DNA of 37,606 nt from IMG/VR virus record IMGVR_UViG_3300045988_011380; one strand, given 5' to 3'. The DNA comes from a virus. Both the position numbers and the translations under genes were made by a program. The notes below the pieces were generated by a model that ran no database searches, was not told where the DNA came from, and saw only the letters and a list, made by a program, of their open reading frames with translations. Positions 1,153 through 35,398 of the stretch are shown here, one piece after another; positions within the stretch are counted from its first letter, which is position 1, and the number at the start of each line of letters is the position of its first letter.

Positions 1153-2774
1153 GCTTTCTCGCCTCCGAAATGATGCTTTGTGACGGCAATAGCGAACGGC
1201 TCAATCTCCGACGCCCAAATCGCCGTTCCCTTGCCGTGGATGCTTTCCCAACACAGCGGAAACCCTCCGATGCCATCAAACAGGCTGCCGAGCGTCGCGC
1301 CCTCTGGCAAATACGCCGCCATCCGCTCGAACATCCAGCGCCAGAATGGGAGCGCGATGGAGTTTCCGAGCGCTTTGTATTTCGGCGCGTCTGCTTCCTT
1401 GTGTACGCGGCCTTTCTCGTCCGTCCAGTCGCCGATGCAGACCCATCCGTCCGGGAAGCCTTGAAGCCTTGTGCATTCCAACGGAGTAAGCCGACGAACG
1501 ACCATGCGCTCCATAACGTGCTGTTGTGTGCCGCCGCTCGCATGAGCTTTCAACGTGCCGAATTGGTCTATGTAAGCGTTTTTCTCGTCGTCGATGCCGA
1601 TAACAAGGTCGGTGGCATCTTTGGAATCTCTCTGTTTGCAGGAAGAGCTAATTTCATTCTCTTTGTAATCGCCGAAAGACTGCATGGAGAATGTCAGCGG
1701 GATCTGGTTTCCGCCGGTCCCCATTCTCGCCTGCAACGACATGGACACATCTCTACTCTCGCGTATCACGTCATTCGCGTGCGTCATATCGAAGATATAC
1801 GTCTGCTGCTTCATCCCCGGCTCTGCCGCCAACGCTCCTGCAACGCCGTGAAGATCGCGCACCTCGTCGCGCTGATTCTGGGCGAACGCCATGACGGCGG
1901 GACGATCAATCGTATTCAACGTATAGCTCACGTCCTCCGTCCAGCCCTTGCCATTGCATCCGGCGGTATCGGCACGGTCTATTCCGTTGCCCTGTAAGCA
2001 GAAGATCGTTTGGTCGTTTTCGGTTCTAAGCGTTCCGCTCTTCTCCGTCTGAACTAACGCGCCTTTTCCTCCGCCGTCACATCCCCCCCGGATGCGGACT
2101 GCATAAGCAGAACAGCTTTCAGCATCTCCGGCAATTTCTTCCCGCGCCGTTCCGCCCTCCGTAAGATCCCGGCGCACGCCTTCGGCGTAAGGTTGTACTT
2201 CGGGTCGGGATTCTCTTCCAGAATCTGCGACAACTTCGTGAGCACCAGAATCTTCGGCTCCTCCGAAACGTTCAAAGAGGATGTCCCCTGCGGTGAATCC
2301 GTTAAAATCGACCACCATGCTGATACGCCGTCTGCGCTGCGGCACTCCCCAGTATTGGGCATCGTGCGTCCGCCAAGCGACGCTCCATCCGTCGCCGACG
2401 ATCCCTCCGGCTTTTGTCCACTTCTGCTTGTTTGGCAATCGAGGAAGAGAAAAGGTTGGCTCTGTGATGCGAACAGCTTCTTCCAGCACGGCGGCGAAAT
2501 CCTCTCCTCCGTTGGAACTATAAGCGCCGGGGACGTTCTCCCATGCCATGTACCTCGGTCGAACAAGTTCATTTGTCCGTCCAATACTTCGTTCATGCTC
2601 TCTCATCTCCTTGACGATTCGTATCTGTTCCATGTACAAGCCGGAACGAGCGCCGGCAAGACCCGCACGTTTCCCCGCGATGCTCAAGTCCTGGCACGGG
2701 CTCCCGCCGGTGATGCACCAGACGGGAGAGATCTCCGCGCCGTTGATCTTTGTGATGTCTCCGACGTGCTTCAT
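1149..2774 (-). CDS. DNA (cytosine-5) methyltransferase, circularly permuted (motif order IV-VI-VIII-TRD-IX-X-I-II)
   Basis: Motifs in order: GGSPCQDLS (IV), ENVPG (VI), QRRRR (VIII), RRLTPLECTRLQGFPDGW (IX), GNSIALPF (X), then LFDGIGGFP (I) and WASEIEP (II) in the last ~55 aa. AAAGGAG lies 8 nt upstream of the ATG at 2774. Confidence 0.85.
   Translation of the reverse strand: MKHVGDITKINGAEISPVWCITGGSPCQDLSIAGKRAGLAGARSGLYMEQIRIVKEMREHERSIGRTNELVRPRYMAWENVPGAYSSNGGEDFAAVLEEAVRITEPTFSLPRLPNKQKWTKAGGIVGDGWSVAWRTHDAQYWGVPQRRRRISMVVDFNGFTAGDILFERFGGAEDSGAHEVVADSGRESRPEVQPYAEGVRRDLTEGGTAREEIAGDAESCSAYAVRIRGGCDGGGKGALVQTEKSGTLRTENDQTIFCLQGNGIDRADTAGCNGKGWTEDVSYTLNTIDRPAVMAFAQNQRDEVRDLHGVAGALAAEPGMKQQTYIFDMTHANDVIRESRDVSMSLQARMGTGGNQIPLTFSMQSFGDYKENEISSSCKQRDSKDATDLVIGIDDEKNAYIDQFGTLKAHASGGTQQHVMERMVVRRLTPLECTRLQGFPDGWVCIGDWTDEKGRVHKEADAPKYKALGNSIALPFWRWMFERMAAYLPEGATLGSLFDGIGGFPLCWESIHGKGTAIWASEIEPFAIAVTKHHFGGEKA
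2057..2268 (-). other. segment of the MTase gene whose native coding frame is +1 relative to the annotated ORF (3' part of alt-frame ORF 2054..2596)
   Basis: The alternate frame reads EEPKILVLTKLSQILEENPDPKYNLTPKACAGILRRAERRGKKLP, the element that normally follows motif VIII. Third-position G+C is 47/62 in the alternate frame versus 27/62 in the annotated frame (hand count). The segment is bounded by a T3 run (2266-2268) and a G7 run (2083-2089). Confidence 0.6.
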
Positions 2775-2778
2775 GCCG

Positions 2779-3531
2779 TCAACTCCTTTCGCCGATTTCT
2801 ACGCCCAGCATTTTGCCGAGCCGTTCACGGTCATCGCCTTTTGGCTGCTGCAAAGCAAGGAGCCGTTCAAGGCGGTCTAAGTCGTCGCCATGCGGCATAC
2901 GGGCAGGAGTGGGTTTCTTCGGCGCTTCCGGCTCGTCCTTGAGCGGGAAAACACCCTGCCAGCCTCGCTGGATGCTCTGGTTGAGTATGGCGATCTTCTT
3001 ATCGTCATCACCGGGGGCGAGCTTTTCCAGTTCGGAAATCGTCAAGGCAAGGGCGCGGTCGGTAAGCGGTTTGCGCATCTTTTTCCGCATTTCCGCAAAA
3101 TCGTTCAAAGCCACATCCAGCGCGGACGCGCCTTTATGTTTTTCCTCGGTAGAGGGAAAACATCTGTCTTTGTCTTTATCCTTGTCCTTGTCTTTATCCT
3201 TGTCCTTGTCCTTGTCATTGGCTTTTTTGGGTTTCTCACAAAAGGCTTGGGTTTTTTGGGTTTCTGAATTAACCGACGGCTTTTTCGGTCTGCCGCCTTT
3301 TTTTCCGTTTTCGGACTGCCGCGCACAGAAATCGTTATAGTTGCCCTTATCCCTATCTATCTGCCACTTCATCTGCGGAAAAACAAAACGCTCGTTCCCG
3401 CGGAGGTCGGGGACTTCGCCCGTGCTGCTGTAAGTAAGCAGCGCCGTGAAAAGCCGCCCGCGCTCCGCGTCGTTGAGTTGTTCAATCGCAGTAAGGTAGC
3501 TGTGATAGGCATTGAAGCTCTCTAATGCCAT
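2779..3531 (-). CDS. putative replisome organizer / DnaD-like replication protein with a (DK)n linker
   Basis: 250-aa ORF. The N-terminus (YHSYLTAIEQLNDAERGRLFTALLTY) and the C-terminus (KPLTDRAL...ILNQSIQRGWQGVF) resemble phage replisome-organizer/DnaD-like proteins (recognition from memory). It lies upstream of the SSB gene. Confidence 0.55.
   Translation of the reverse strand: MALESFNAYHSYLTAIEQLNDAERGRLFTALLTYSSTGEVPDLRGNERFVFPQMKWQIDRDKGNYNDFCARQSENGKKGGRPKKPSVNSETQKTQAFCEKPKKANDKDKDKDKDKDKDKDKDRCFPSTEEKHKGASALDVALNDFAEMRKKMRKPLTDRALALTISELEKLAPGDDDKKIAILNQSIQRGWQGVFPLKDEPEAPKKPTPARMPHGDDLDRLERLLALQQPKGDDRERLGKMLGVEIGERS
3166..3216. repeat. 17-codon GAC/GAT-AAG/AAA hexamer array containing an exact tandem 18-mer x2 (3172-3189, 3190-3207)
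   Basis: Read directly: gtctttatccttgtcctt occurs twice in tandem within (gtc ctt/ttt)n. It encodes DKDKDKDKDKDKDKDKD. Confidence 0.9.
3223..3265. repeat. exact 14-nt direct repeat ttttttgggtttct (3223-3236 and 3252-3265)
   Basis: Read directly; 29-nt pitch; adjacent to the hexamer array and to T-runs at 3281-3285 and 3298-3304. Confidence 0.85.
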
Positions 3532-9690: not shown

Positions 9691-10251
9691 GTGTCAGCAC
9701 TCACAGACTTGCAGCCTTACTTAGATGAGTATCCAGCCAAAATTCGCAAAGCGAAAAATGCCAGCGGCTTCACCCTGCAAGAATTGTCAGACCTGTCCGG
9801 CGTCCCATACAACAACATCTGTGACACGAATGCAGGGCGGGTCAAGCACCCGCTCCTTTTTTATGCCGCTGCCACTTGTAAGGTATTGAATCTATCGCTG
9901 AATGAGCTTGTCGGTCTGGATGAACAGCCGGACACACAGCATGTCCATGATCTGGAATTGGAGAACGTGCGGTTATCCGGCGAAGTAAAGCATCTGCAAG
10001 AAATGAACGCAGGGCTGAGAAAGCAGGGGGAAACCCACACAAGGACAATTTATATGCTCATAGGCGTATGCAGTATTCTTTTGTGCGCCGTTGTATGGTA
10101 CGTCATATTTGACATCCAGGTAGAGACCGCCGGTATTTTCCGCTCGGCTGGGACAAGCATTTTTGCGGGCGTCCTCGCCCTGATACTGAACGCCTCCGTC
10201 ACAACCATCATTTACGCCTTCAAAAGCATTTACAAGGGGAAAAAGAAATGA
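9691..10251 (+). CDS. membrane-anchored XRE-type HTH protein
   Basis: HTH: GFTLQELSDLSGVPYNNICDTNAGRVKHP. Then a coiled segment and two hydrophobic helices (IYMLIGVCSILLCAVVWYVIF; IFAGVLALILNASVTTIIYAF). GTG start 11 nt after GGAG. Its stop overlaps the integrase ATG (ATGA). Confidence 0.65.
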   Translation: MSALTDLQPYLDEYPAKIRKAKNASGFTLQELSDLSGVPYNNICDTNAGRVKHPLLFYAAATCKVLNLSLNELVGLDEQPDTQHVHDLELENVRLSGEVKHLQEMNAGLRKQGETHTRTIYMLIGVCSILLCAVVWYVIFDIQVETAGIFRSAGTSIFAGVLALILNASVTTIIYAFKSIYKGKKK

Positions 10252-11540
10252 GAGTTGCACTTTATGTCCGCGTCTCCACGGAAGAACAAGCCGTTCACGG
10301 CCTTTCCGTCGATGACCAGAAAGAAAGCCTGAAAAAATGGGCAGAGGAAAACAAGCATAAGGTCGTTGATTATTACGTCGATGCCGGGGTAAGCGGCAGG
10401 AAAAGCGTGTCAAAGCGGCCTGAATTGCAGCGGCTTCTATCCGATGTGGAAGCGGGGGAAATCGATCTCGTAGCGTTCACAAAATTAGACCGTTGGTTCC
10501 GCAACATCGGCGAGTTTTACAAAGCGCAGGAAGTGCTCGACGCGCACGGCGTTGTATGGCAAGCGACATACGAGGATTATGAGACCGCCACCGCCGCCGG
10601 ACGGTTAAAGGTCAACATTATGCTGTCCGTCGCGCAGGACGAGGCAGACAGAACGTCAGAGCGCGTTAAACGAATCATGCAGCACAAGCGGGAGCTTGGT
10701 CTCTGCCCGGCGGGCAAGACGCCCATCGGGTTAAAGGCCGTCGAGAGCCGCCTTTGCATCGACGAAGAAACGGCGCACGTTGCGAGGCGAATGTTTGAAG
10801 ATTACATCGCAACGGGAAGCGTTAACCACGTCAAGAAGATGCTCGTTTCCGAATTTGGAATAATGCGAGGAAATCATCACATCAAGAACGCGCTGGGCAA
10901 TGAACGATACATCGGAAAGAATAATGGGATTCAGGTCTGCGACGCGCTGATACCGCCGGAGGATTTTGCCCTTGTACAGCGGATGCTGACGGCGAGAAGC
11001 GTTCGCAACAACGGATCGCGGCACACATGGCTTTTCTCCGGCCTTGTCTGGTGCGCCGAATGCGGCCATCGTCTTGTGACGCATTCAACACGTCAACGGG
11101 GGACAGATTACTTCTATTACCGCTGCAAAAACTATGAACTGGGCATCTGCCGCCACAAAAAGAGAATCAACGAGGCGGCACTTGAAAAATATCTGCTTGC
11201 CAAGCTGCCAATCGAGGTACAGGCGCATAATGCAAAGCTCAAGGCGGGAAAAATAAAACCGACGGTTGACACGGCGGCGATCAAACGGAAAATGGACAAG
11301 CTGACAGACCTTTACCTTGCTGATCTAATCAACCGCGAGAAATACGAAATTGAATATACAGCATTAAAGGAAAAACTGAACGTACCGCCAGAGCCAAAGC
11401 CCATAGACGAAGCGCTTATCATGTCATTGCTTGACGCCTACGACAAGCTGCCGCCAAGCGGGAAAAAGGAAGCATGGAATCGCTTCATCCGCCGAATTGT
11501 CATTGCAAACAACGGCGAAATATTTTTTGATCTCGTTTAG
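10248..11540 (+). CDS. int: large serine recombinase (phage integrase)
   Basis: N-terminus MRVALYVRVSTEEQ...GLSVDDQ (resolvase catalytic Ser domain), then a recombinase domain and a zinc ribbon (CAECGHRL...YYRCKNY..C). 430 aa. Confidence 0.92.
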   Translation: MRVALYVRVSTEEQAVHGLSVDDQKESLKKWAEENKHKVVDYYVDAGVSGRKSVSKRPELQRLLSDVEAGEIDLVAFTKLDRWFRNIGEFYKAQEVLDAHGVVWQATYEDYETATAAGRLKVNIMLSVAQDEADRTSERVKRIMQHKRELGLCPAGKTPIGLKAVESRLCIDEETAHVARRMFEDYIATGSVNHVKKMLVSEFGIMRGNHHIKNALGNERYIGKNNGIQVCDALIPPEDFALVQRMLTARSVRNNGSRHTWLFSGLVWCAECGHRLVTHSTRQRGTDYFYYRCKNYELGICRHKKRINEAALEKYLLAKLPIEVQAHNAKLKAGKIKPTVDTAAIKRKMDKLTDLYLADLINREKYEIEYTALKEKLNVPPEPKPIDEALIMSLLDAYDKLPPSGKKEAWNRFIRRIVIANNGEIFFDLV

Positions 11541-14807: not shown

Positions 14808-15071
14808 TCATTCGATTGCAGCGGCGATCTTGTCCTTGATCGACCGTATACGGCGCTCGACTTTCTCTGTGCCGTACAGCTCCGTTTCCGTCTCCATGGC
14901 AAAGGAGATTTGCAGTACGCTCATTCCCTTTGCCCGCAGGCGGAAGATTTTTAGTTCCTCATCAGTAAAGCCGCAATCCCGCTCGAACTGTTCTCGCAGC
15001 TCTCGCGGGAATTGCAACTTATTCTTTGTCCCCGGCGTTGTTAAACTCCGTAGGATGCTCTCTGTCGTCAT
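14808..15071 (-). CDS. small sigma-70 region-4 / LuxR-type HTH regulator
   Basis: 87-aa ORF. FTDEELKIFRLRAKGMSVLQISFAMETE...TEKVERRIRSIKDKI fits a region-4-like HTH. Confidence 0.6.
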   Translation of the reverse strand: MTTESILRSLTTPGTKNKLQFPRELREQFERDCGFTDEELKIFRLRAKGMSVLQISFAMETETELYGTEKVERRIRSIKDKIAAAIE

Positions 15072-15171
15072 TGGCTACACTCTCCATATACGCTTCGTAA
15101 AGTGTCTCTGCGAGGCTTCCAGACGCCTCGACGCCATTGATGCGGCAGAATGTTTTTACGGATTCTTTCAT
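15019..15171 (-). CDS. small ORF (50 aa) overlapping the regulator start in another frame
   Basis: Hand translation: MKESVKTFCRINGVEASGSLAETLYEAYMESVANDDREHPTEFNNAGDKE. GGAG lies 9 nt upstream. 53-nt overlap with 14808..15071. Confidence 0.35.
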   Translation of the reverse strand: MKESVKTFCRINGVEASGSLAETLYEAYMESVANDDREHPTEFNNAGDKE

Positions 15172-15293
15172 CTGTTTTTTCTCCGTAATGTCGGTTTACA
15201 AGGATTTAAGGAAAAAGCATTTTGCTTATTGTGGAATCGGAAAGCAATAAGTAAAAAAATTGCCGTTTTCTTTACTTAAAACTGCTCCGTCTC

Positions 15294-23750: not shown

Positions 23751-24119
23751 TCAATCTTGCGTTAAAAATTCAGCCGTTATATTGATATAACGGCCTTTGA
23801 TCTTATCGTCCGCCGCGTCGGTCTGCGGCTGGGAAAACGGCGTGCCGCGCTGAATGAGGATCGCGCCGCCGTTGCAGGGAACATAAACGCCGCCCAACCC
23901 GATGGCTTTGGAAATCTCCTCCGACTTGCTGACGATGGGAAGGAGGGAATCGCCGTAATACCATAGATTGATCACTATGGGCATTGCGCCGTCGTCGATG
24001 GAGCCGATGGTCTGCTCATACACGAGGTACGGGAACGCAGCGTCGGCTTCCGCCTGATTCGGATAGGCGGGAATGCCGAACGACGACATGAACGAATGTA
24101 GAGCCTCCGCCTTCGTCAT
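23751..24119 (-). CDS. tail completion / tail terminator-like protein
   Basis: 122-aa ORF in the head-tail joining block; call by position. Confidence 0.5.
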   Translation of the reverse strand: MTKAEALHSFMSSFGIPAYPNQAEADAAFPYLVYEQTIGSIDDGAMPIVINLWYYGDSLLPIVSKSEEISKAIGLGGVYVPCNGGAILIQRGTPFSQPQTDAADDKIKGRYINITAEFLTQD

Positions 24120-24454
24120 GGCAGCGCCGCCAATCTGCGGACGTTGTACCGCTCGAACTGGAAGCTGGAAGCCGACGGAGTTTTCGGCAGTTTGGAAACG
24201 ACGAGGTAATAGCTGCCGTCCGCCTTGATCACGTCCTGCTCGTCGAGGTTGGTGTTCACAGGCGTGACAATGGTATCGGTGTAGGCGACGCCCGCCTGTT
24301 GGGCGGCGATACGCTCCGTAGGTGTGAGGGAGGAAAACGCAGCGCTGATCTCCGCGCCCTCCGTCCAGCCGTTCACGAAGCCACCGACGCCGTCCGGGAC
24401 TTTCGTCTTGTTCATCACGACGGCGGGCGCGTAAAAAGTCTCGTATAGGCTCAT
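24116..24454 (-). CDS. head-tail adaptor / head closure protein
   Basis: Met 49 of the track ORF, preceded by GGAGGAAG, with ATGA coupling. 112 aa. Confidence 0.55.
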   Translation of the reverse strand: MSLYETFYAPAVVMNKTKVPDGVGGFVNGWTEGAEISAAFSSLTPTERIAAQQAGVAYTDTIVTPVNTNLDEQDVIKADGSYYLVVSKLPKTPSASSFQFERYNVRRLAALP

Positions 24455-24885
24455 ATCTTCCTCCATCGGTTCAGGCGGGAGGCAAAAGCGCCTTGCCATG
24501 AGGCGGAATCGCTTCCCGTTCCCTTGCTGTAGGAATAGCCGCCGAAGCTCTCGCTCTGGTATGGGCTTGCGAGAACATCGGCGTTTTTGGCTTTCCATTC
24601 CTCGATCTCGGCGGCGATAGCTTCCAGCGCGGGCGGGATCGCCATAGCCCAGATCGCGCCGTCAAACGTTTCGTCCGCGGGGAGCTTATCCCCGCAGCGA
24701 TACACTCCGTCGCAGAAGACGCTGCCGACGACGCGAAAAAACTGTCCGGCGGCGAGAAACGGCAGCGTGATCTCGCCGTCATTCACGGTGTACTCGCCGG
24801 GAACAATGTCCATGGCGAAATAGTTGTGCAGCGAAGCACAAATCTCGTCGATCATTGCCCCGCTGCACTTGGTATTCTCATTCAC
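24451..24885 (-). CDS. head-tail connector (gp6-like) protein
   Basis: 144-aa ORF with a GTG start 7 nt after AGGAGGG, directly after the capsid gene. Confidence 0.55.
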   Translation of the reverse strand: MNENTKCSGAMIDEICASLHNYFAMDIVPGEYTVNDGEITLPFLAAGQFFRVVGSVFCDGVYRCGDKLPADETFDGAIWAMAIPPALEAIAAEIEEWKAKNADVLASPYQSESFGGYSYSKGTGSDSASWQGAFASRLNRWRKI

Positions 24886-24900
24886 GCTGCCGCCCTCCTA

Positions 24901-25767
24901 TCAGGACACGGAGGCGAGGAGCTTGGCGATCTTCGTGCCGTCCGTGACCTTCGCGCCGTAGACGTGCAGGCCCTTGACCGCGTCGGCAAAACGGCTCTCC
25001 ATGCGGTACGCCTCGGTCTTGATGATCTGCTCGGCGTAGGTGGTGGCGTCGGTGATCTGCGCGGTGATCTCGAAATAGGGCGTCTTGCCGGTGTCCGTGC
25101 CGGTGCCGGTCTTGACGTTGTTGGACATGTAAACGTCGAAACCGGCGATGCGGCCAACAAGGCCGTTGATAAGGGCTTCCTGTCCGGCGGTCGCGGTGCT
25201 CTTGGCGAAGCGGTCGTCGAGCAGGAGGAGGGAGTGGACGTCCGGGGGAACGACGATGGTGCGGCCCGTGTTGGGGACGTTCGCCTTGTCGAGCTTCGTC
25301 TTGAGCTTCACGATGTTCTCATAGACGTTGGAGCCGGTGAGGGCAACGGGGGCGGCGGCAGAGCCGATGGTGTTTCCGGCAGCGGCACCGGCAGCAATCA
25401 CGCCGAGAAGGTAGGCGTCGGAAACGTCGGCGAGGGCGTAGGCGGCGCGTCCCATCGCGGTATCGACCAGCTCGCCCGCGGCCTGCACCTTGTCCACGTC
25501 ATCGACCTGGAAGTTAAAGTACTTGGCCTGGTCAATAACAAGGGTCTGATCGGTCGTGGTCAGGGTTTCGGGAGCGTCGATGTCGGTATTCTTGGTGTAG
25601 CTCTTTACGGTGATCGCACCGATGGTGTTGATGTGGACGGTGTCGCCATGGTTGCTGATCTCGCCCTCATAGTTGCGGTTGACGAGGTTGGTGGCGACGT
25701 GCGCCTTTTCGAGCGCATAGAGAAGTCGGGCGCTCCAAAGTTCGGGAATAAAAGTGGTTACAGCCAT
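24901..25767 (-). CDS. major capsid protein
   Basis: 288-aa ORF (MAVTTFIPELWSARLL...NYEGEISNHGDTVHIN) following the scaffold gene. Confidence 0.85.
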   Translation of the reverse strand: MAVTTFIPELWSARLLYALEKAHVATNLVNRNYEGEISNHGDTVHINTIGAITVKSYTKNTDIDAPETLTTTDQTLVIDQAKYFNFQVDDVDKVQAAGELVDTAMGRAAYALADVSDAYLLGVIAAGAAAGNTIGSAAAPVALTGSNVYENIVKLKTKLDKANVPNTGRTIVVPPDVHSLLLLDDRFAKSTATAGQEALINGLVGRIAGFDVYMSNNVKTGTGTDTGKTPYFEITAQITDATTYAEQIIKTEAYRMESRFADAVKGLHVYGAKVTDGTKIAKLLASVS

Positions 25768-25773
25768 TGTGAA

Positions 25774-26373
25774 TTAGTCTCCTTTCCGGTTGAGGGACGC
25801 CTTTACCGCGTCCCAATTCTTGTTAATTTCGGCGGCGGACATTTTCTTGATTTCGTCCGTCGTGTAGCGGGTGACAGGATTGTTGTTCGGCGGGGTGGGG
25901 GTGTTCGCGCCCTGCGTCTGCGTCGTGGACACGAGCGGCTTAAATGCGCCCGCGATAAGCGCGTCGAGGGACGCGGCGTCTTTGATCTTGTCCCCGTCCA
26001 TTTCGAGCGCGGCCATTTCCTCGCCGCAGCCACGCATGGCGAGGTCGAGATTCCCGCCGGTGATGTGCTTGCTCTCGAAGTAAGCCCGGACGGCTTTCTC
26101 TTTCGCCGCCTTGGATTCCTTCGCGGTGACGTCGGCTTTGTACGCCTCGAAATCGGAGTGCTCCTTTTCGTATTTCGATTTGTAGCCGTCGTCGCCTTTG
26201 GCTTTGAGCGCGTCAAGCTCGGCCTGTACGGCCGGGATCTTTTCCGCGTCCGCCTTGAATGCGTCGCGCTGTTCCTTGAGCGCGTCGGTGGTCTCGACGT
26301 GCATCTCGACGATGCTGTCAACCTGTTCGTCGGTGAGCCCCATTGCCTTGAGGGCCTTTCTTGTGAGTGCCAT
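25774..26373 (-). CDS. scaffolding protein
   Basis: 199-aa charged helical ORF immediately upstream of the capsid gene. Confidence 0.8.
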   Translation of the reverse strand: MALTRKALKAMGLTDEQVDSIVEMHVETTDALKEQRDAFKADAEKIPAVQAELDALKAKGDDGYKSKYEKEHSDFEAYKADVTAKESKAAKEKAVRAYFESKHITGGNLDLAMRGCGEEMAALEMDGDKIKDAASLDALIAGAFKPLVSTTQTQGANTPTPPNNNPVTRYTTDEIKKMSAAEINKNWDAVKASLNRKGD

Positions 26374-26398
26374 AACGATTACTCCTTTTCATTCTTTC

Positions 26399-26493
26399 GC
26401 GGCGGTGCATCGCCGCAGAGTATTAAAAAAGCCGCTTAAAAAAGCGGCAGTAAAAAAATCAGCTTACGGCGGTGCATCGCTGTAAGCTGATTT
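26399..26493 (-). terminator. three consecutive hairpins; two look like rho-independent terminators on the minus strand
   Basis: Hairpin C: 26456-26493, 12-bp stem followed by T7. Hairpin B: 26431-26448, 7-bp stem followed by T6. Hairpin A: 26399-26416, 6-bp GC stem. The 13-nt motif ggcggtgcatcgc occurs at 26401-26413 and 26468-26480. Confidence 0.6.
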
Positions 26494-26503
26494 CTTTATT
26501 CGG

Positions 26504-26920
26504 TTATTTGCTGAGGTATTCCTTGATGATCTCCTTATAGTCGTCAAGGCTGCGCTCGACCGCGTTTTTCAGAAAGCGCCGGGGCTTTTGCGGATAGCCC
26601 ATGCGGAATTGCCCGGTTGCCGGATCGCGGTATACCCAACGCTCTTTAGGCGTTCCGCCGCCGATGGCGTATTTGCCGGTTCCCTCGTGGACGTATACGG
26701 CGTAATTGACGTTCGTTCCGACCTCGACGGAATCGCCATCCACCTGATGGGCGATGCTCGAGCGCAAACGCCCGGTGTCGACAGCGCCGACGTCGGTAAT
26801 CTCGTCCTTTACATCGCCCTCCGCCTGTATGCCGACGGCTTCCAATGCCCGCAGCTTCTGTTCGGCGGTGGCTTTGATAACATCGGCGACGTTGTCATAG
26901 AGCTTATAAACGAATGGCAT
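26504..26920 (-). CDS. HK97 gp10-family protein
   Basis: Met 54 of the track ORF. VDTGRLRSSIAHQVDGDSVEVGTNVNYAVYVHEGTG matches the gp10-family signature from memory. Confidence 0.65.
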   Translation of the reverse strand: MPFVYKLYDNVADVIKATAEQKLRALEAVGIQAEGDVKDEITDVGAVDTGRLRSSIAHQVDGDSVEVGTNVNYAVYVHEGTGKYAIGGGTPKERWVYRDPATGQFRMGYPQKPRRFLKNAVERSLDDYKEIIKEYLSK

Positions 26921-27141
26921 TAGAAATCCGGCTCCCATTCGTCCATTCCGCCGCCGAGGTCGCTGTAAGGACACGCCTTGCATACGCGCCGGGCATTCTC
27001 GATGTCCTCGATCTCGGCAAGCTCCTTTGTGGATGAAATCTTGAACATACCTGTCAGGCAGCAAAGTGAATCGTAACACAAATCTGCCGTAATCACGCGC
27101 CCATACGCCGGGCAGTAATGATCTGCATCATAATCCAGCAT
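26920..27141 (-). CDS. small Cys-rich acidic protein, candidate immunity partner of the MuF C-terminal domain
   Basis: 73-aa ORF. GGAGG lies 9 nt upstream. Its start overlaps the MuF stop by 14 nt. Confidence 0.5.
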   Translation of the reverse strand: MLDYDADHYCPAYGRVITADLCYDSLCCLTGMFKISSTKELAEIEDIENARRVCKACPYSDLGGGMDEWEPDF

Positions 27142-28642
27142 TTTTTATTGCCTCCATCATTGTATCAATTTCCTCATCGTAATCTGCGCGTTTCCACGCA
27201 GTTTTGTATATCCATTGGTCGTTTTCTCGCGTAATTATGCTTATTCCATCGGAAGAAACAAACATTTTCCTTCTTCCGTTCCATTGCACAAACATTATTT
27301 TTGCATTATCCATATATCCGCGTACTTCATCGTCGGTAATTCCGCGTTCAAGCATACGGTGCATGATATGATACGGATCACGTTTTCCACTTGGGAGGAT
27401 ATACGCTCTCTCTTGAACAGGAGGAAGCACAACACCGCGTTCTATTCCGGCCGTTTTTAATTCCCGCTCGACATCGTAGAACGGCTGACTGCTTTCCGGG
27501 TATTTGTCGAGGTATTTTTTCAGACCCTTGACATACTTCCATTTCTCGGTATCAGTATACTTGAAACTCTGGAAATCATCAAATGTTTTCGGCACATTGT
27601 CCCCGACGATTTTTCGGTATTCCTGCCATTGGGCATAATCGGAGCTGCGGCGGGCGGCTTTCTTGAAAGCGAGCGTTGTACCCTCCGGGTCTTCCGCCAT
27701 CTTCTTTTCCAGCCACTCGGTATACGTTTCCCGTTTCCGTCCGTGTCCCTTGACTACGGCTTTGACGGAACAGCGGCAGTTATAAATATTCCAGCCGGAC
27801 GCGCCGTGCGACGTGTCGCCGGGGAACATCAGCTTCTCCCCGCCGACGGTGAACGCTTCCTCCATGCCCACGCGCTGACCGTCTGCCTTGCCGTGCCATT
27901 TTCGGGTACGGTGATCCTTGGTGGCGATCCACTCGCGCTCCATGTCGATGCCCATTGCCGCGGCTTTCTCATACGTCGCCTGACGTCCGCCGTTCTCGGC
28001 GGCGGTAACGGCGGTTCGGGCGGCACGGATGGCGCTCTCGATCTCCATATCCGTAATGCGGCGGCGGAGGTCTGCGGCGATCTCTCGAATGCTGCGTCCC
28101 ATGAGGATGCCGGATGTGACGGCGTTCGTGATCTGCTTCTTTCCGTACTCGAGGTCGATGTTCCGGCGGACGGCTTTTGCCTTGGGATAATACGGCATTA
28201 AATCCGGCTGCTCAACGATCAGGCGGCGGACGGTCTGCTCATCGTAGAGGGTGAAATCGCCGCCAGCGTCCGATACCTCATACGCGGCATAGTTGCGGTT
28301 GAGCGTATATATCCCCGGTGTGGCGTCGTTGACGTAGGAGATGGCTACCTCGTTTGCGTTGGTGAGCCGTTCGGCGAGCTTATTCCGCAGGGCTTCAAAG
28401 CGCTCGCCGCGCCCCATCTGGGCGAGCCGCCATTGTTTGTAGTCTTCTTCCGTCCATTCGCGCCCGTTGACGATGGTGCCGATGAGCTTTTGCATTTCCT
28501 CATCACGGAGGCGGAAGTTGGCGAAATACTCGTCGATGATCTGCTGGAGGTTTTTTTCCGCGCCGCCGTACATCTCCCGGATGCGCTTTTCGAGCGCCGC
28601 CAGCTCAGCGTCGGTCAGGCGGCGTCCCTCGTCGCGCTTCAT
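27128..28642 (-). CDS. minor head protein (SPP1 gp7 / MuF family) with a ~200-aa C-terminal extension ending in a small toxin-like domain
   Basis: The MuF core ends around FPGDTSHGASGWNIYNCRCSV (aa ~270-292). The extension ends DPYHIMHRMLERGITDDEVRGYMDNAKIMFVQWNGRRKMFVSSDGISIIT. The 3' ~500 nt are visibly AT-richer. Confidence 0.8.
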   Translation of the reverse strand: MKRDEGRRLTDAELAALEKRIREMYGGAEKNLQQIIDEYFANFRLRDEEMQKLIGTIVNGREWTEEDYKQWRLAQMGRGERFEALRNKLAERLTNANEVAISYVNDATPGIYTLNRNYAAYEVSDAGGDFTLYDEQTVRRLIVEQPDLMPYYPKAKAVRRNIDLEYGKKQITNAVTSGILMGRSIREIAADLRRRITDMEIESAIRAARTAVTAAENGGRQATYEKAAAMGIDMEREWIATKDHRTRKWHGKADGQRVGMEEAFTVGGEKLMFPGDTSHGASGWNIYNCRCSVKAVVKGHGRKRETYTEWLEKKMAEDPEGTTLAFKKAARRSSDYAQWQEYRKIVGDNVPKTFDDFQSFKYTDTEKWKYVKGLKKYLDKYPESSQPFYDVERELKTAGIERGVVLPPVQERAYILPSGKRDPYHIMHRMLERGITDDEVRGYMDNAKIMFVQWNGRRKMFVSSDGISIITRENDQWIYKTAWKRADYDEEIDTMMEAIKNAGL

Positions 28643-29982
28643 TCATCCAGACCGAGGCGGGCGACCGCCGCGCTGTCCCGGCGCTGCATGAGATCGTCGA
28701 ACTGGTCGGCGTCGCCGTTGATGGTGAGCAGCTTTTTGATGATGTATTCCTCATCGTAGAACTGCGCGGCGAGGATGAGGCTTTGCGTCTCCTCCTGCCG
28801 GTTGATGATCTGGCTGCGCGTGTAGGTCGGCTTGTCATCGATGCCGAGCAGGGAGAGGATGCCGACAATGAAGCGCGTGACCTGCGCTTCAAACATATCT
28901 GTCTTGAGATCGAGAGGAACATACGCCGCCTTGATCGCCGTCGCGGTCTGGTTTCCGGCGGATACGGCGGCGCTGTCAAAGCATTGGAAATCCTCGAACA
29001 GCTTCTTCTTGAGCATATCAATGGTTGTGTTCGTTCCGGCATACGGCGCTTCGAGGGTGTGCGCCTCCGCCTTTGCGCCCTCATCGCCGTCGGCGTGGGC
29101 AACGTGCGTGGTTTTCAGCCGCTCGACAAACCGGGCGTCGTCGAGGTCGTCCATGCCACCGCAGTTGGTGAGGACCCAATAGATGAGGTTTCCCTCGTCC
29201 ACGTTGTTCACCATGTTCGAGGTGGCGAGGTCGAGGGCGTCAATGGTGTTGCGCTTGCCGACGATCTCCGACAATCCGCGTTCGTTGTTAAACAGCGGCA
29301 CGATTGGAAATCCGGTATAATTCTCGCCGTCGAGTATTTCCGTTCCGCCGACATCGGAAGAGCGTACAAGCTGCTTGTAGGCTCTCTTGTCCTGCATGAT
29401 CGTCATCGGCTCGTCCTTGCGCTGGATGAACTCGGTGAAGCCGTCCAGCTCGTAGAGCGTGACGCGCTTCGGCTTTTCCGGCGCGAGCTGCCAGAAGCGG
29501 ATACCGGCGGAGAGTGCGCCCGTTTCCTCATCGTAGAGCGGCACAAACTCCGTCAGGCGAAAGACGCGCAAATGCTCCCAATCCCAGAAGCCGAACGAAA
29601 CGCCGCCGATCTGCGCATACTTGGCGGCGGTCATAATCTCCTCGTCGAAGTCGGCGCAGAGCTTGTCTGCTGTTTTCTTGTCCGCGAACGTGACGCCGTT
29701 GCCGAGGAGATACGCGACCTGCTGGTTAACGTCGAAGCGAAAGAACGAGGACGCGAGCTTGTGATTCGCCGTGAACATATCGCGATGTGCCTTGCCTTTG
29801 AGATCGTAGAGGATCTTTTCATACCGGCTGATCGTTGGGTTCTCGCCGTTATAGTACAGGTCGGCGTCCTCCGCTGTGTGGTACGACTTGCTGCCGGTGT
29901 GCTCGTCGATGGCGTTGTTGATGAACGTCGTCCTCGCGTCGAGCGATCCTCCCGCGGCGAGTAAGTCCTGATATGTGTACAT
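28639..29982 (-). CDS. portal protein
   Basis: 447-aa ORF between TerL and the MuF-like head protein; SPP1 gp6-like size and position. Confidence 0.88.
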   Translation of the reverse strand: MYTYQDLLAAGGSLDARTTFINNAIDEHTGSKSYHTAEDADLYYNGENPTISRYEKILYDLKGKAHRDMFTANHKLASSFFRFDVNQQVAYLLGNGVTFADKKTADKLCADFDEEIMTAAKYAQIGGVSFGFWDWEHLRVFRLTEFVPLYDEETGALSAGIRFWQLAPEKPKRVTLYELDGFTEFIQRKDEPMTIMQDKRAYKQLVRSSDVGGTEILDGENYTGFPIVPLFNNERGLSEIVGKRNTIDALDLATSNMVNNVDEGNLIYWVLTNCGGMDDLDDARFVERLKTTHVAHADGDEGAKAEAHTLEAPYAGTNTTIDMLKKKLFEDFQCFDSAAVSAGNQTATAIKAAYVPLDLKTDMFEAQVTRFIVGILSLLGIDDKPTYTRSQIINRQEETQSLILAAQFYDEEYIIKKLLTINGDADQFDDLMQRRDSAAVARLGLDE

Positions 29983-29991
29983 ATTTCCTCC

Positions 29992-31254
29992 TCACATCCA
30001 CAACGGGATGTATTCCGTGTCCTTTTTATTCCACAGCTTTCGCACGATGGACGAGGCGCTGTCCGGCGCGTCGTCGTGCTCGGCGTTCTCGGTGTAGTCG
30101 CAAATCTGATTGATGTATTCCGCGTCCGTCCCGGCGACGAATACCACGTTTTTCCACTCGCTTTTTAAATAGCTCGTGATCTTGACAAATTTGTTTGTCT
30201 TTTCGTGGTAGGTGTCGGCACGCTCGCCCTTGTCGCGGAGCGTCTTTGCAAGGTAGCCCTTATCCGAGTTCCGCTCGCAGTAGATCAGCCCGGCGTTGAA
30301 CGCCTTTCGTAGGCGGATGATCTCCGGTAAGCAGTCGTCAACGTGCTTCTGCCAGAGCCGCCCGTAAATGTAATACTTGCCGCCGGACTTTTTGCAGATA
30401 GTGAACGCGGTTCCGTCCTCGCCGCCGTAGGAGGCGTCGATATGACAGATGCCCTGCTCGGCAAGCGCCGGGTCTGCGCCCGTTTGCGGTGACGTGAAAA
30501 TAACATCATCGGACGCGATGTGGCGCAGCTCGTAGTTTGCGGCAAAAAGGGAGGCGGTCATCGCCTCCCGAATGATCTGTAATTGCTCTTTGGAAATTAA
30601 GCCGGTAGAGTAACAATCGTGCCGCTCGATGTTGGGCATGAGGGAGAAGCAGTCCTCTTTGTGCCACGGCGTGCCGGTGTTGAAAATGCGCCCGCCGCGG
30701 TTGCGGATGTTCTGCAGCTCCTGATAGACGATCTTTGTGCGGTCGCGCTCGGCCTTACTCGTGCGATCCTGCACGTTGACAATGTCGTCGGTGAAGATTC
30801 TGTCAAAGTGCTTGCCGGTGATGCTGCCATTGATGCCCATCGCAACGATCTGCGATGTGCCCTTGCTGTCGCCGGGCAAATTGGATGATAGCTCCGACGC
30901 CGTCTGCGTTGTGAGAACCATGTCCTTGCCGTGGATGAGCCGCGCCGCCTCCTGCATGGGCGGGGATAGCAAAATATTCCGCACCTGTCGGATGACCTCT
31001 TTCACGTCGGCGTCGGTCTTGCGGAGGAACAGCGTTTTCTTGTTCGGCAGCAAAATGAAAATGCACGCGAGGGCGACGGAAACGCACGTCGTTTTATACG
31101 AGCCGCGATGCGCCTGCAAGGTCTTGTCCTGCGTGCCGCGGATCATCTCCGTGATCCACCGGTTGTGCAGAGCTGTCAATTTGTCAAACCCGACGGCGTA
31201 GCCGACCTTTACCGGCTCATTCAGGAGAATTGCTATCGCCGCTTCCCGCGTCAA
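29992..31254 (-). CDS. terL: terminase large subunit
   Basis: 420-aa ORF with a Walker-A-like HRGSYKTT and a nuclease-half acidic motif; downstream of TerS. Confidence 0.9.
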   Translation of the reverse strand: MTREAAIAILLNEPVKVGYAVGFDKLTALHNRWITEMIRGTQDKTLQAHRGSYKTTCVSVALACIFILLPNKKTLFLRKTDADVKEVIRQVRNILLSPPMQEAARLIHGKDMVLTTQTASELSSNLPGDSKGTSQIVAMGINGSITGKHFDRIFTDDIVNVQDRTSKAERDRTKIVYQELQNIRNRGGRIFNTGTPWHKEDCFSLMPNIERHDCYSTGLISKEQLQIIREAMTASLFAANYELRHIASDDVIFTSPQTGADPALAEQGICHIDASYGGEDGTAFTICKKSGGKYYIYGRLWQKHVDDCLPEIIRLRKAFNAGLIYCERNSDKGYLAKTLRDKGERADTYHEKTNKFVKITSYLKSEWKNVVFVAGTDAEYINQICDYTENAEHDDAPDSASSIVRKLWNKKDTEYIPLWM

Positions 31255-31615: not shown

Positions 31616-31712
31616 CCTTTCTTTGCTGGCGCTGGATGAATTTCTGCATATCCCGCTTTAAATACGGGCTGTTTGTTTTTGCTATGATTGCTTTTGCTTC
31701 TTCAATCGTCAT
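31557..31712 (-). CDS. small basic ORF (51 aa)
   Basis: Met 16 of the track ORF (MTIEEAKAIIAKTNSPYLKRDMQKFIQRQQRKGG...). Overlaps the stop of the MTase gene and the start of terS. Confidence 0.4.
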   Translation of the reverse strand: MTIEEAKAIIAKTNSPYLKRDMQKFIQRQQRKGGDYGKNRETSKGDRSKTI

Positions 31713-32907
31713 GGAGCAGCACCGCTTCCTTTCCCGTGAACTTCTGCCAGCGGTCAATGATCACGTCAACAAATTTCGGGTCGAACTCCATGCAGTACGC
31801 ATGACGCCCGTTCTGCTCCGCTGCCATGATCGTTGTGCCGGAGCCAGCGAACAGGTCGAGCACATTCTCTCCCGGCTTGCTCGAGCACTGCATCTGATAA
31901 TCAAACAACTTGATTGGCTTCATTGTCGGATGCTCCGCAGACCGCAGCGGCTTATCAAAATTCAGAACCGTAGTCTGGCGGCGGTTCTTGAAGAAATAAT
32001 ACGATTTCCCTCGCGTCCAACCATACAGACACGGATCATGTTCGTTTTCCTCGATCTCGCTCTCGCCGTAAAGACATGGCTCATGTTTCCATTGGAAGTC
32101 CTGCCTTCCAAGAACCATCGAATTCTTTACCCATATAAGACATTGCCGAACGCGGAGCATCGCATCACGGCACGCGCCGTGGAAGTTGTACCCCTCACTA
32201 TCCGAGTGCCAGATATAGAATGGCGCTCCCGGCTTCATCACCATCGCAGCATTTGAAAAGGCATCTGTGAGTAAGCGCCGAAACGCCGTATCTTCCATAT
32301 TGTCGTTCTTAATCTTTCCGGCAGCGCTCTGATAGTCCACATTGTACGGAGGGTCGGTGAGAAGTAAATCCATCTGTGCCCCACCCGTGAGCTTTTGTAC
32401 ATCATCCAGAGACGTGCTGTCGCCGCACATCAGCCGGTGGTCGCCAAGCTGATACACATCGCCGATTTTGCTTTTCGGCTCTGCCGGAAGGACAGGATCG
32501 TAATCATCCTCAATGACGGAATCGTCCAGCTCGTCACGCAGCCCCCAGTCGAAATCAAACGCGGACAGGTCGATTTCCGGCAGCTCCATCGAAAGAAGAT
32601 CCATATCCCAATCGCTCTCGTTTGTCTTATTGTCCACGAGGCGCAGGGCGTTGACCTGTTCCGGTGTGAGCTCGTCCACGCAGACGCACGGCACGGATTC
32701 CATGCCGAGCTTCTTTGCCGCCAGAACACGGCAATGTCCGATGACGATCACGCCGTCGCGGTCGATCACTACGGGCTGGACAAATCCGTATTGCCGGATG
32801 CTCTCCGCCACGTTGTCGATCTGCCGCTTATCGTGCTTCTTCGCGTTCTTTGCATACGGCACGATTTCTTTGATTGGGATATTCTTAACGTCCATAACCT
32901 TCTCCAT
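31702..32907 (-). CDS. ParB-like nuclease domain fused to an N6A/N4C DNA methyltransferase
   Basis: ParB N-terminal pattern (IPIKEIVPYAKNAKKHDKRQIDNVAESIRQYGFVQPVVID). Then the catalytic DPPY and an LDLFAGSGTT AdoMet loop (beta-class order). Start taken at Met 20. Confidence 0.85.
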   Translation of the reverse strand: MEKVMDVKNIPIKEIVPYAKNAKKHDKRQIDNVAESIRQYGFVQPVVIDRDGVIVIGHCRVLAAKKLGMESVPCVCVDELTPEQVNALRLVDNKTNESDWDMDLLSMELPEIDLSAFDFDWGLRDELDDSVIEDDYDPVLPAEPKSKIGDVYQLGDHRLMCGDSTSLDDVQKLTGGAQMDLLLTDPPYNVDYQSAAGKIKNDNMEDTAFRRLLTDAFSNAAMVMKPGAPFYIWHSDSEGYNFHGACRDAMLRVRQCLIWVKNSMVLGRQDFQWKHEPCLYGESEIEENEHDPCLYGWTRGKSYYFFKNRRQTTVLNFDKPLRSAEHPTMKPIKLFDYQMQCSSKPGENVLDLFAGSGTTIMAAEQNGRHAYCMEFDPKFVDVIIDRWQKFTGKEAVLLHDD

Positions 32908-32969
32908 CTCCGCCGCCCCCTCTGCTGCGTACGGCTTTCCCGCCTTTCGGCTACTGTTCCACATAACAA

Positions 32970-34178: not shown

Positions 34179-34455
34179 CGTTTCTCCTTTCTCCGTCTGC
34201 GCAGAAGAAGTTCTCCGGCACAATACAATCAACGCAAACGCCGTGTGAGCAGCACAAGCCGCCTATGTCCTCCCAACTGTGTTTGCAATCTTTGCAATGC
34301 ACAACCTTTTCATACCCAAGCTGCACCACCATGCGCTTAAACTGGCTGCGGGTGGGGCGGTCAATATCGACCGTCGGAATCTTTTTCATTTCCTCGATTA
34401 CCAGACCGGAAACGTATATTCTGTTCTGCGGGCTTTCAGCGTCAATCAATCGCAT
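34168..34455 (-). CDS. Cys-rich protein (95 aa)
   Basis: Met 101 of the track ORF is preceded by GGGAGG. Contains HCKDCKH...CCSHGVCVDC...FFCADGERR. Confidence 0.6.
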   Translation of the reverse strand: MRLIDAESPQNRIYVSGLVIEEMKKIPTVDIDRPTRSQFKRMVVQLGYEKVVHCKDCKHSWEDIGGLCCSHGVCVDCIVPENFFCADGERRNDET

Positions 34456-35338
34456 TTTCGTAGTCCTCCCAAATGTTTGCTTGTCCCGGTAGAACGCCGT
34501 CCTCCATCCACCAGTGGAACACCTCTTCGCCGGTCTTTCCCCAGCGTGGGTCTTCGACCTTCCCGCGAGCTTTTCGTGCTTCAAGCATCCGGTCAAACGC
34601 TCGGATGTAATTGCGCTGAAAACCCGGCCATCGGGCAAACTCGACGTAACGGGCTTTGCCAGCCATTGGGCAGCCAACACAACCGACGCGGCAAAATCCC
34701 TCGTTGTAAAGCGGGTTCGTCTCAACCTTTTGATCGGTAAGGTAATCCCACACATCCCGATCCGTCCAGTCGATGATGGGATTGCAGACCCGTTTGCCTT
34801 TCATCTGGCAATTTTCAAAAAGCTGTCGGTCTTCCTCGTTGTCGTTGTTCAAAATGAGCTTTTTCTTCGGATCCGAGGCTTGTACTTCCAACGCCCCACG
34901 GTTTGCCGCTCTTTTGACAGATTCTGCCCATCGAACCCCTGTAACGACAAATCGGTCTTTGCCTGCCGTTTCTTTTAAGACAGCGCAGCAGTACCGTGCA
35001 ATTCGCGTCGGCGGCATCAGCTTTTTGGGAATCAAGCCCCACATTGAAGTACGCTTGCCATGATATGTCGGAAGAATTATCGTGTACTCAATGCCCTTTT
35101 CCTCGAACTCTTTGGCACGTTTTCGGACGTGGTACACCGTCTCGGGCGCGTCCGCTGTCGTATGTGAATGGCAAATTTCAAACGGGATTCCGGCATTTTC
35201 GGCGAGCTTACAGATTACGGCACTGTCCTTCCCGCCACTGTCGGTCAGAAGTAGCGGCTTCTTGTACAGTTTCAAGGACATTTGCGACGCAAGACGCAGC
35301 CGCTCCATTGCGGTCTGTTCCAAGTCCGTCATCGCCAT
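34442..35338 (-). CDS. PAPS-reductase-family (PP-loop ATP pyrophosphatase fold) protein
   Basis: PP-loop SGGKDS, then CNPIIDWTDRDVWDYL, and a C-terminal Cys cluster CRVGCVGCPM. Start taken at Met 15, after GGGGGGTG. Confidence 0.85.
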   Translation of the reverse strand: MAMTDLEQTAMERLRLASQMSLKLYKKPLLLTDSGGKDSAVICKLAENAGIPFEICHSHTTADAPETVYHVRKRAKEFEEKGIEYTIILPTYHGKRTSMWGLIPKKLMPPTRIARYCCAVLKETAGKDRFVVTGVRWAESVKRAANRGALEVQASDPKKKLILNNDNEEDRQLFENCQMKGKRVCNPIIDWTDRDVWDYLTDQKVETNPLYNEGFCRVGCVGCPMAGKARYVEFARWPGFQRNYIRAFDRMLEARKARGKVEDPRWGKTGEEVFHWWMEDGVLPGQANIWEDYENAID

Positions 35339-35398
35339 TCCGAACACCCCCCATTCCACCGCCACACACAGCGGTGACATTTGCCGCCGTAACAGGGT

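Follow-up and report, generated by a model that had tools for sequence, protein, structure and literature searches.

A probable MuF polymorphic toxin with an RNase-like tip and a four-cysteine partner in a temperate phage of gut Clostridia

To our knowledge, the only MuF toxins that have been characterized are of the (p)ppApp-synthetase type. More generally, the packaging of toxins with MuF head proteins and their subsequent injection have been proposed (Zhang 2012, PMC3482391; Jamet 2017, PMC5576092; parts of Iyer 2017, PMC5512222), and immunity proteins encoded downstream have been demonstrated experimentally for the Apk2 MuF toxins (PMC12226406). One of the described toxin domains, Ntox49, is predicted to be a BECR RNase, is listed with the conserved residues 'H, [KR]', and has both LXG and MuF among its delivery modes (Zhang 2012, PMC3482391); parts of Iyer 2017 (PMC5512222) describe a His together with a Thr/Ser in colicin D-like BECR RNases and in MuF-fused BECR domains. 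The locus described here lies in the IMG/VR virus record IMGVR_UViG_3300045988_011380, analyzed over its whole length of 37,606 nucleotides (nt; the window). It consists of a gene for a 504-amino acid (aa) MuF/gp7-type minor head protein, which ends in a toxin-like module (domain X), and of an overlapping gene for a 73-aa cysteine-rich protein (the partner). With a probability of about 72%, we take this locus, carried by a temperate phage of gut Clostridia, to be a MuF polymorphic toxin whose tip is probably an Ntox49/DUF4258-like RNase and whose partner is probably an immunity protein.

The MuF core and its exchangeable C-termini

The Pfam family Phage_Mu_F covers aa 169-293 of the 504-aa protein (E = 8e-14), PHROG head-morphogenesis families match the protein with E-values down to 2e-34, and three landmark motifs occur from aa 285 (NIYNCRCSV), aa 334 (SDYAQWQEY, within the linker), and aa 422 (DPYHIMHRM). 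The N-terminal MuF domain is encoded in the packaging/head module beside the portal gene, and the order of this module on the minus strand is terminase, portal, MuF, the 73-aa open reading frame (ORF), an HK97-gp10-like gene, scaffold, and major capsid. Genes for a large serine recombinase, a GH25/CW_7 lysin, and DNA methylases in the rest of the window indicate that the DNA belongs to a temperate phage, or to a prophage, whose host is Gram-positive.

The C-terminal part of this protein was compared across 77 IMG/VR loci encoding relatives of MuF residues 1-300. In close IMG/VR relatives the MuF core is 87-97% identical irrespective of the C-terminus that follows it, and across the 77 loci the core either has no extension or continues into one of 15 or more unrelated types. 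In the short MuFs (320-359 aa), the gp10-like gene begins after 5-39 nt, with no ORF between the two, and nearly all extension types bring their own type of small downstream ORF; the exception is the extension of L187, which has none. Several of the alternative tips belong to recognizable toxin families, including an ADPrib_exo_Tox extension (E = 4e-15), an anthrax-lethal-factor-like (ATLF-like) peptidase tip, a RelA/SpoT-like tip in L019 and L039 that matches PDB 8vx3 (Tas1; E = 2e-11), and DUF6883 tips in the same slot of L188 and L232 (E = 5e-14). DUF6883 is a BECR-type RNase family.

Between the core and the tip, the linker matches MuFs of Clostridium, Clostridioides, and Streptococcus phages. 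It contains the motif Y/W-x-E-Y-x-x-[IV]-[LV]-G-x-x-x-P-x-[ST]-[FL]-x-x-F-Q-x-x-K-Y, which also stands before unrelated MuF tips, namely the RelA/SpoT-like, the DUF6883, and an 'HFIAR' type, and which may be a common recombination junction or a pre-toxin element. As read from these comparisons, the orthologous MuFs vary by exchange of C-terminal cassettes, and it is by such a conserved core with exchangeable tips that MuF polymorphic toxins are defined.

The exchange can also be followed at the DNA level, where composition changes along the gene. G+C content and G+C at third codon positions (GC3) fall from 0.61 and 0.78 in the MuF core to 0.39 and 0.375 in aa 425-504, and among the 1487 intervals of 450 nt compared along the 37.6 kb, the one from 27126 ranks first for low G+C. 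The cassette is the same in one relative (L172), which shares 97.5% identity with the window across 6.7 kb, and three others (L181, L173, and L174) share ~90% DNA identity with the window and differ in the cassette region. Of these, L181 represents an empty site: it aligns to window positions 31000..27705 and 26920..24012 with 37 nt between the two blocks, its MuF is 320 aa long, and the gp10-like gene begins 13 nt later. In L174 and L173 the alignment extends up to 27711 and resumes from 26921/26920, and the inserts between these points are unrelated (827 bp and 693 bp, respectively). Homology to these close relatives therefore stops at 27704/27710 and restarts at 26921, which delimits a variable unit of 784 bp (26921..27704). 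The composition of the cassette suggests recent acquisition from lower-G+C DNA.

These comparisons bear on an earlier note, made from the letters of this DNA, which had proposed a MuF protein with a normal core ending near NIYNCRCSV, an AT-rich 3' region swapped in as a cassette, and a polymorphic-toxin architecture in which orthologs would differ at the C-terminus. The core ends where it was placed, the sharp DNA breakpoints and the extreme G+C content agree with a swapped cassette, and the span it had outlined (26920-27745) is close to the one set by the breakpoints. The ortholog comparison that it had called for returned a conserved core with at least 15 extensions or none; the extension is not an invariant part of the family, given the empty site and the other cassettes in relatives with ~90% DNA identity.

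Domain X and its four-cysteine partner

A profile of the last 133 residues, searched against 1.84 billion proteins, matched 340 cluster representatives (clustered at 50% identity) at E<=1e-3, mostly from phages of gut Clostridia. Among the matches listed, domain X is located at the C-terminal end of the full-length proteins, with the exception of P0319. The long homologues number 61, and 60 of them are MuF-type fusions, with Phage_Mu_F in front of the domain in 36 and Phage_min_cap2 in 24; domain X has therefore been joined to two different MuF-type carriers. An additional word-indexed search, with 113- and 133-aa queries, returned only proteins of <240 aa, so that full-length MuF fusions were missed and its counts under-represent the family; the exhaustive search of representatives corrects this under-count.

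In Pfam, the window domain matches DUF4258 (PF14076) with E = 0.043 and 14.6 bits, relative to a curated gathering threshold of 25 bits. Subthreshold matches to this same family recur in 24/27, 22/53, and 11/61 relatives, and NCBIfam and relaxed Pfam scans of domain X likewise returned subthreshold DUF4258 only. PBECR and DUF6883 models were absent from the Pfam matches at E<=1 for the window domain and for these 27+53+61 relatives; the same Pfam approach readily detected DUF6883 in other cassettes.

An AlphaFold model of domain X, built from a 59-sequence alignment (pLDDT 93.5, pTM 0.87), predicts a small N-terminal sub-domain followed by two helices (H55-62 and H66-74), four strands, and a last helix at the C-terminus. 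A shallow alignment of 12 sequences gave a model with a pLDDT of 45, which was discarded. RelE/YafQ/HigB/YoeB/ParE-type toxins account for 20 of the top 50 Foldseek matches in the PDB, all at E>=0.22 and with low TM-scores. Across the main family and two distant subfamilies, His425 is invariant and Thr481 is invariant or nearly so, and in the model the former begins the first core helix and the latter lies in the last strand. A His located within the N-terminal helix together with a Thr/Ser in the C-terminal strand is the arrangement of the colicin D-like BECR enzymes, and by this likeness His425 and Thr481 are candidate catalytic residues. The Ntox49 signature, compared by its published description, agrees with H425 and R429. 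The toxin-like core is also basic, with an isoelectric point (pI) of 9.7.

A homologue of domain X was also identified in one context other than MuF. The sequence OR846743 (L249) encodes a 455-aa LXG protein (PF04740, E = 9e-35) that ends in a domain X homologue (42-63 bits) and keeps the His and Thr; the gene order is DUF3130, LXG protein, DUF1871. This entry is deposited in GenBank as 'Listeria phage LM 4-11-1' (UNVERIFIED_ORG), and its positions 771-3441 look like a bacterial type VII secretion locus, not phage DNA. The tip domain is thus shared with another polymorphic toxin family, and the LXG homologue offers independent, homology-based support for a toxin role of domain X. Together, the recurrent subthreshold DUF4258 matches, the predicted fold, the conserved His and Thr, and the LXG homologue lead us to read domain X as probably a divergent Ntox49/DUF4258-like RNase toxin.

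The ATG of the partner gene (27141-27139) precedes the last letter of the MuF TGA (27130-27128) by 14 nt, and a GGAGG of its own stands at 27155-27151, 9 nt upstream of this ATG; at the other end of the gene, the TAA and the ATG of the gp10-like gene overlap (TAATG at 26922-26918). The encoded protein contains 6 Cys and is acidic (pI 4.2, net charge -9.5), complementary to the charge of the basic core. At least 194 homologues at 54-99% identity and a match to phrog_35328 (E = 1e-41; function unknown) indicate that this is not a chance ORF. When the partners of all subfamilies are aligned, only C10, P11, I17, C22, C54, and C57 are kept, with an invariant C-P...C...C-x-x-C signature in proteins of 56-78 aa, and the four invariant Cys suggest a metal site. 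Based on this pattern, the partner probably binds metal, and probably zinc. No family was matched in Pfam, NCBIfam, or PDB profiles, comparison with the N-terminal zinc domain of MqsA using hhalign gave a probability of 0.2%, and a tblastn search of GenBank phages with the 73-aa protein returned no match. The partner has no DNA-binding domain and is too short for a helix-turn-helix.

The association between domain X and this protein is close from whichever side it is approached. At all 47 IMG/VR loci chosen by domain X, a Cys-rich ORF overlaps its stop codon, and the same domain with an overlapping four-Cys ORF occurs in MT835552. In a distant subfamily (E = 1e-7 to 1e-10 with the main-family profile), an overlapping four-Cys ORF is present at 80/80 viral loci. 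For the second distant subfamily, a scan of IMG/VR returned no loci and a metagenome scan returned 10, and the overlapping four-Cys ORF is present at nine of these. Among the MuF-core relatives, the four-Cys ORF occurs in 4/4 with domain X and in 0/73 without it. For the 38 genome loci chosen by the small ORF, domain X is located immediately upstream in 28. The small downstream ORF is therefore specific to the toxin type. An alternative considered earlier, that the 73-aa gene is a fixed gene of the head module (194 vs 13 homologues), was rejected: the gene is absent from 73/73 MuF-core relatives without domain X, and the apparent excess arose because the short-query search, which returned only proteins <240 aa, missed fused MuFs.

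The exceptions among these genome loci are displaced tips, remnants, and orphans. In 4-5 MuFs, a different tip and the small ORF belonging to that tip are followed by the Cys-rich gene, and in one of these displaced arrangements (L026) ~30 codons of the 3' end of the old domain X are left. Orphan four-Cys genes, with no domain X in any frame, occur at L016:2324-2554, L035:5971-6183, L037:5959-6183, and L038:7129-7329. The neighbors of these orphans are ordinary chromosomal genes (recR/macro-domain, fur-like/yihY-like, and others), and the orphans lack the C28/C29 pair of the phage copies. A domain X without a small partner was never seen, and the partner without domain X was; this asymmetry is the one expected of a toxin and its antidote.

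Stand-alone pairs occur beside a transposase gene (L001), with domain X as a separate gene after MuF (L002), and in four Logan contigs (L041-L044). In the latter (e.g., L041:726-2064), a bacterial aminotransferase gene runs directly into a truncated 3' end of MuF, which is still an intact ORF of 190 aa comprising the linker and domain X; a four-Cys gene (69 aa) and then the gp10-like gene come next. The arrangement resembles a remnant, domesticated or in decay, in which the pair has stayed whole. A reading of the 190-aa matches as truncated gene calls is false for these contigs, where the MuF end abuts the aminotransferase gene, and is probably true for P0001 and P0002. The chromosomal remnant in L041 has DNA in common only with window positions 27778..26429. 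Over this block the linker is 95-100% and the gp10-like gene 93-100% identical, compared with 40-73% for the domain core and 72-85% for the 5' half of the partner.

Across 39 non-redundant full-length pairs, the distances of domain X and the partner are correlated (r = 0.57, Mantel p<=0.0005), also when the MuF core is controlled for (partial r = 0.52), and more strongly than either is with the MuF core. As judged from these alignments, domain X and its partner are an ancient, co-diverging pair.

The earlier note had anticipated much of this. It had described the acidic, Cys-rich 73-aa ORF starting 14 nt before the MuF stop with its own GGAGG, and had proposed it as a partner coupled to the domain; the coordinates, charge, and Cys content are as described, and the coupling recurs at nearly all loci chosen by domain X. 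The terminal domain, which it had called toxin-like, has its homologue at the tip of an LXG toxin, and its predicted fold and conserved His/Thr fit BECR RNases. Its more specific comparison with RelE/DUF4258-like toxins, for which it had called for a remote-homology search of the tip, stands in part: the resemblance is detectable, in recurrent weak DUF4258 matches and in RelE-type toxins among the top Foldseek results, and all matches fall below the respective thresholds.

Proposed mechanism and alternative explanations

By analogy with gp7 of SPP1, the MuF protein would be packaged into the capsid through the portal and leave with the DNA, and the terminal module would in this way enter the cytoplasm of the newly infected cell. 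As predicted from the model and the conserved residues, the module would act there as a metal-independent BECR RNase (RelE/colicin D-like), with His425 and Thr481 being catalytic. The four-Cys protein, probably zinc-bound, would be made with the toxin from the late operon and, as the genomic association and the complementary charges suggest, would bind and block the basic RNase in the producing cell. Copies in other prophages, or orphan chromosomal genes, could protect cells against incoming toxin. It is a more doubtful proposition that the four-Cys family is an undescribed metal-binding immunity family specific to a divergent, capsid-delivered Ntox49-like RNase, and that its orphan or left-behind copies serve the host or a prophage as a defense by disarming the injected effector of incoming phages (a 'stolen antidote'). 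If true, this would be a form of anti-phage or superinfection immunity.

Several observations weigh against a toxin and immunity pair of this kind. There is no significant match between domain X and any characterized toxin, in sequence or structure: the best DUF4258 score among the relatives is 22.8 bits, below the threshold, and covers only model positions 2-40 of 71, searches of PDB sequence profiles with the domain X alignments gave nothing meaningful, and Foldseek searches with the model gave nothing significant (E>=0.22 in the PDB and >=0.015 in BFVD). The LXG homologue has DUF1871 downstream, and the four-Cys protein is therefore not the sole pairing for domain X. Both members of the pair are also fairly conserved and not hypervariable, with a mean identity of 58% for domain X and 69% for the partner (32% for the carriers). 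Finally, no convincing separate promoter for the partner was detected (4 promoter-like matches in the cassette vs 1.8 +/- 1.3 expected), and expression of the partner in lysogens is therefore unsupported.

Some of these points would sit well with a different role for the delivered domain, not as an interbacterial weapon but as an early take-over or counter-defense effector that cuts host or defense RNAs (mRNA or CRISPR RNA) and helps the infecting phage, with the four-Cys protein only protecting the producer or silencing the enzyme until packaging. This is a possible explanation to which we assign well under even odds. Parts of Iyer 2017 (PMC5512222) describe MuF-BECR fusions and argue for this role, and it would account for a relatively conserved domain X in a cassette that is translationally coupled within the late head operon and has no detected promoter for the partner. 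However, in orthologues the same slot holds antibacterial toxin domains (ART, RelA/SpoT-like (p)ppApp-type, and DUF6883), a homologue serves an LXG type VII secretion toxin, and the chromosomal orphan partner genes look like retained immunity genes. Counter-defense is compatible with the data, and the two roles are not mutually exclusive.

The free-standing two-gene versions (L001, L002, and L041-L044) raise the question of a type II toxin-antitoxin system for addiction or abortive infection, in which the toxin gene comes first, as in mqsRA and higBA, and is here fused to MuF. Such a module would act inside the lysogen, stabilizing the prophage or excluding other phages, with no virion delivery. 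DUF4258 proteins are indeed listed as toxins of such systems, some of them fused to the zinc-binding antitoxin MqsA. However, nearly all of the long homologues are C-terminal fusions to two MuF-type families, the linker junction and cassette swapping are typical of polymorphic toxins, the partner lacks both a DNA-binding domain and similarity to MqsA, and a late structural operon is ill-suited to a module that needs to be on in lysogens; we consider this explanation improbable.

Least probable of all is a non-toxic extension that serves as a structural or a DNA-, RNA-, or portal-binding head accessory with the four-Cys protein as a metal-binding assembly factor, since, despite the absence of a significant match to a characterized toxin, the fair conservation of the pair, and the inactive BECR domain with a presumed binding role that parts of Iyer 2017 (PMC5512222) describe in the MuF of phage Mu, relatives with ~90% DNA identity either have no such cassette or have unrelated toxin cassettes in this place, the pair also persists outside phages and the small gene as an orphan, a secreted LXG toxin ends in a homologue of domain X, and the candidate catalytic His and Thr are conserved and not degenerate.

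The locus in its genome and among described systems

The features of the locus and of the adjacent head genes are listed in Table 1.

Table 1. Coordinates of the MuF locus and neighboring head genes in the window.
Feature	Coordinates	Strand	Remarks
MuF/gp7-type minor head protein gene, 504 aa	27128..28642	minus	ORF list; predicted delivery scaffold and toxin tip
Conserved MuF core, aa 1-300	27743..28642	minus	G+C 0.61, GC3 0.78
Linker, aa 301-371, with junction motif aa 334-368	27530..27742	minus	Matches phrog_21033
Terminal toxin-like module (domain X), aa 372-504	27131..27529	minus	Alignment of homologues
Predicted BECR/RelE-like core, aa 425-504	27131..27370	minus	G+C 0.39; His425 at 27370-27368; Thr481 at 27202-27200
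73-aa acidic four-Cys partner gene, candidate immunity protein	26920..27141	minus	ORF list
GGAGG ribosome-binding site	27151..27155	minus	Inside MuF 3' end; read from sequence
Swappable cassette, 784 bp	26921..27704	minus	MuF codons ~313 to 504 and whole 73-aa ORF
HK97-gp10-like/tail-completion-type gene	26504..26920	minus	Pfam HK97-gp10_like E 5.6e-7; phrog_5 E 1.7e-19; right border of cassette
SPP1-type portal gene	28639..29982	minus	Pfam E 4e-35; adjoins MuF start
Terminase large subunit gene	29992..31254	minus	Same head module

Other features of the head module and of the wider window are recorded here as separate observations. The position of the gp10-like gene, between MuF and scaffold, is unusual for a neck/tail-completion gene and is kept throughout the lineage. 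Two terminator-like hairpins (one with a 17-bp stem and one with a GC-rich stem and a T run) occur at 26431-26493, in the interval between the gp10-like and scaffold genes and in the middle of the head operon; this is also where the DNA block common to the window and L041 ends. In three IMG/VR relatives (L215, L216, and L222), the MuF core is split just before the N-C-R-C motif, at the site of NIYNCRC in the window, by an intein-like insertion of ~290 aa; its ends read C...HNC, and its match to Pfam Intein_splicing (E = 2.6e-7) is subthreshold. Elsewhere in the window, two further low-G+C islands (~0.43-0.46) are located at 11100-11400, over the 3' portion of the ORF for the serine recombinase (10248-11540), and at 14830-15280, in a 149-aa plus-strand ORF with no Pfam match that is possibly a moron. 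Additionally, genes for a C5 cytosine methylase, a fusion of a ParB-N-terminal domain with an N6-N4 methylase, and a PAPS-reductase-like protein (1149-2774, 31702-32964, and 34442-35380) are typical anti-restriction or DNA-modification cargo.

The relatives of this phage amount to a natural series for experiments on capsid-delivered toxins, as the lineage includes the empty site, alternative cassettes, displaced tips, stand-alone pairs, and orphans. The toxin and partner pair is large and lies outside the Pfam and NCBIfam families, and the predictions that it yields are testable: a basic, RNase-like core of ~90 aa with candidate residues His425 and Thr481, and an acidic 56-78-aa partner with the C-P...C...C-x-x-C signature. 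If the partner is a zinc-dependent inhibitor, it would represent a new structural class of immunity protein.

In comparison with described systems, the locus is most like the MuF polymorphic toxins, with which it shares an N-terminal MuF domain by the portal gene, a variable tip, a tip-specific small ORF, and Firmicutes hosts; the ART, RelA/SpoT-like, and peptidase tips of its orthologues are among those listed previously (PMC3482391, PMC5576092, PMC12226406). It differs from these in a tip that is above no Pfam, NCBIfam, or PDB threshold and is known from sequence alone, and in a four-Cys partner that is without a Pfam or NCBIfam family and was not found in the literature searched. With Ntox49/DUF4258, domain X shares the predicted alpha+beta layout, a first helix in which Arg/Lys comes after a conserved His, and the MuF and LXG contexts. 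However, it scores at most 22.8 bits with about half of the model covered, and the immunity protein listed for Ntox49 is Imm22 and the toxin-antitoxin versions pair with MqsA-like antitoxins, neither of which is a four-Cys mini-protein.

The MuF-PBECR proteins (Iyer 2017, PMC5512222) are likewise predicted to be packaged and injected, and DUF6883 tips occupy the same slot in two orthologues of the MuF described here. No PBECR or DUF6883 match was obtained for domain X itself, and the parts of Iyer 2017 considered here stress counter-defense and describe no dedicated inhibitor gene; the partners of MuF-DUF6883 (BECR-Tox3) fusions are DUF4926 proteins. The LXG toxin of OR846743 has a homologous tip that retains both the His and the Thr, and a gene of immunity type lies downstream of it, but it differs in delivery (LXG and not MuF), in the partner (DUF1871 and not a four-Cys protein), and in its setting, which is a bacterial locus and not a phage head module. 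Similar to the MqsR-MqsA and HigB-HigA systems, the locus has the toxin gene first and a predicted RelE-like toxin, and MqsA binds zinc through four Cys. Unlike these, it has a toxin fused to a virion protein and a partner with neither MqsA similarity nor a DNA-binding domain, in which the first two Cys are 12 residues apart and do not form a CxxC knuckle. The architecture is thus already known, and domain X probably belongs to a clade that was named in 2012, or lies close to it. The apparent novelty is in the family of four-Cys partners, in how large and deep the pair is, and in the clean natural series that surrounds this locus.

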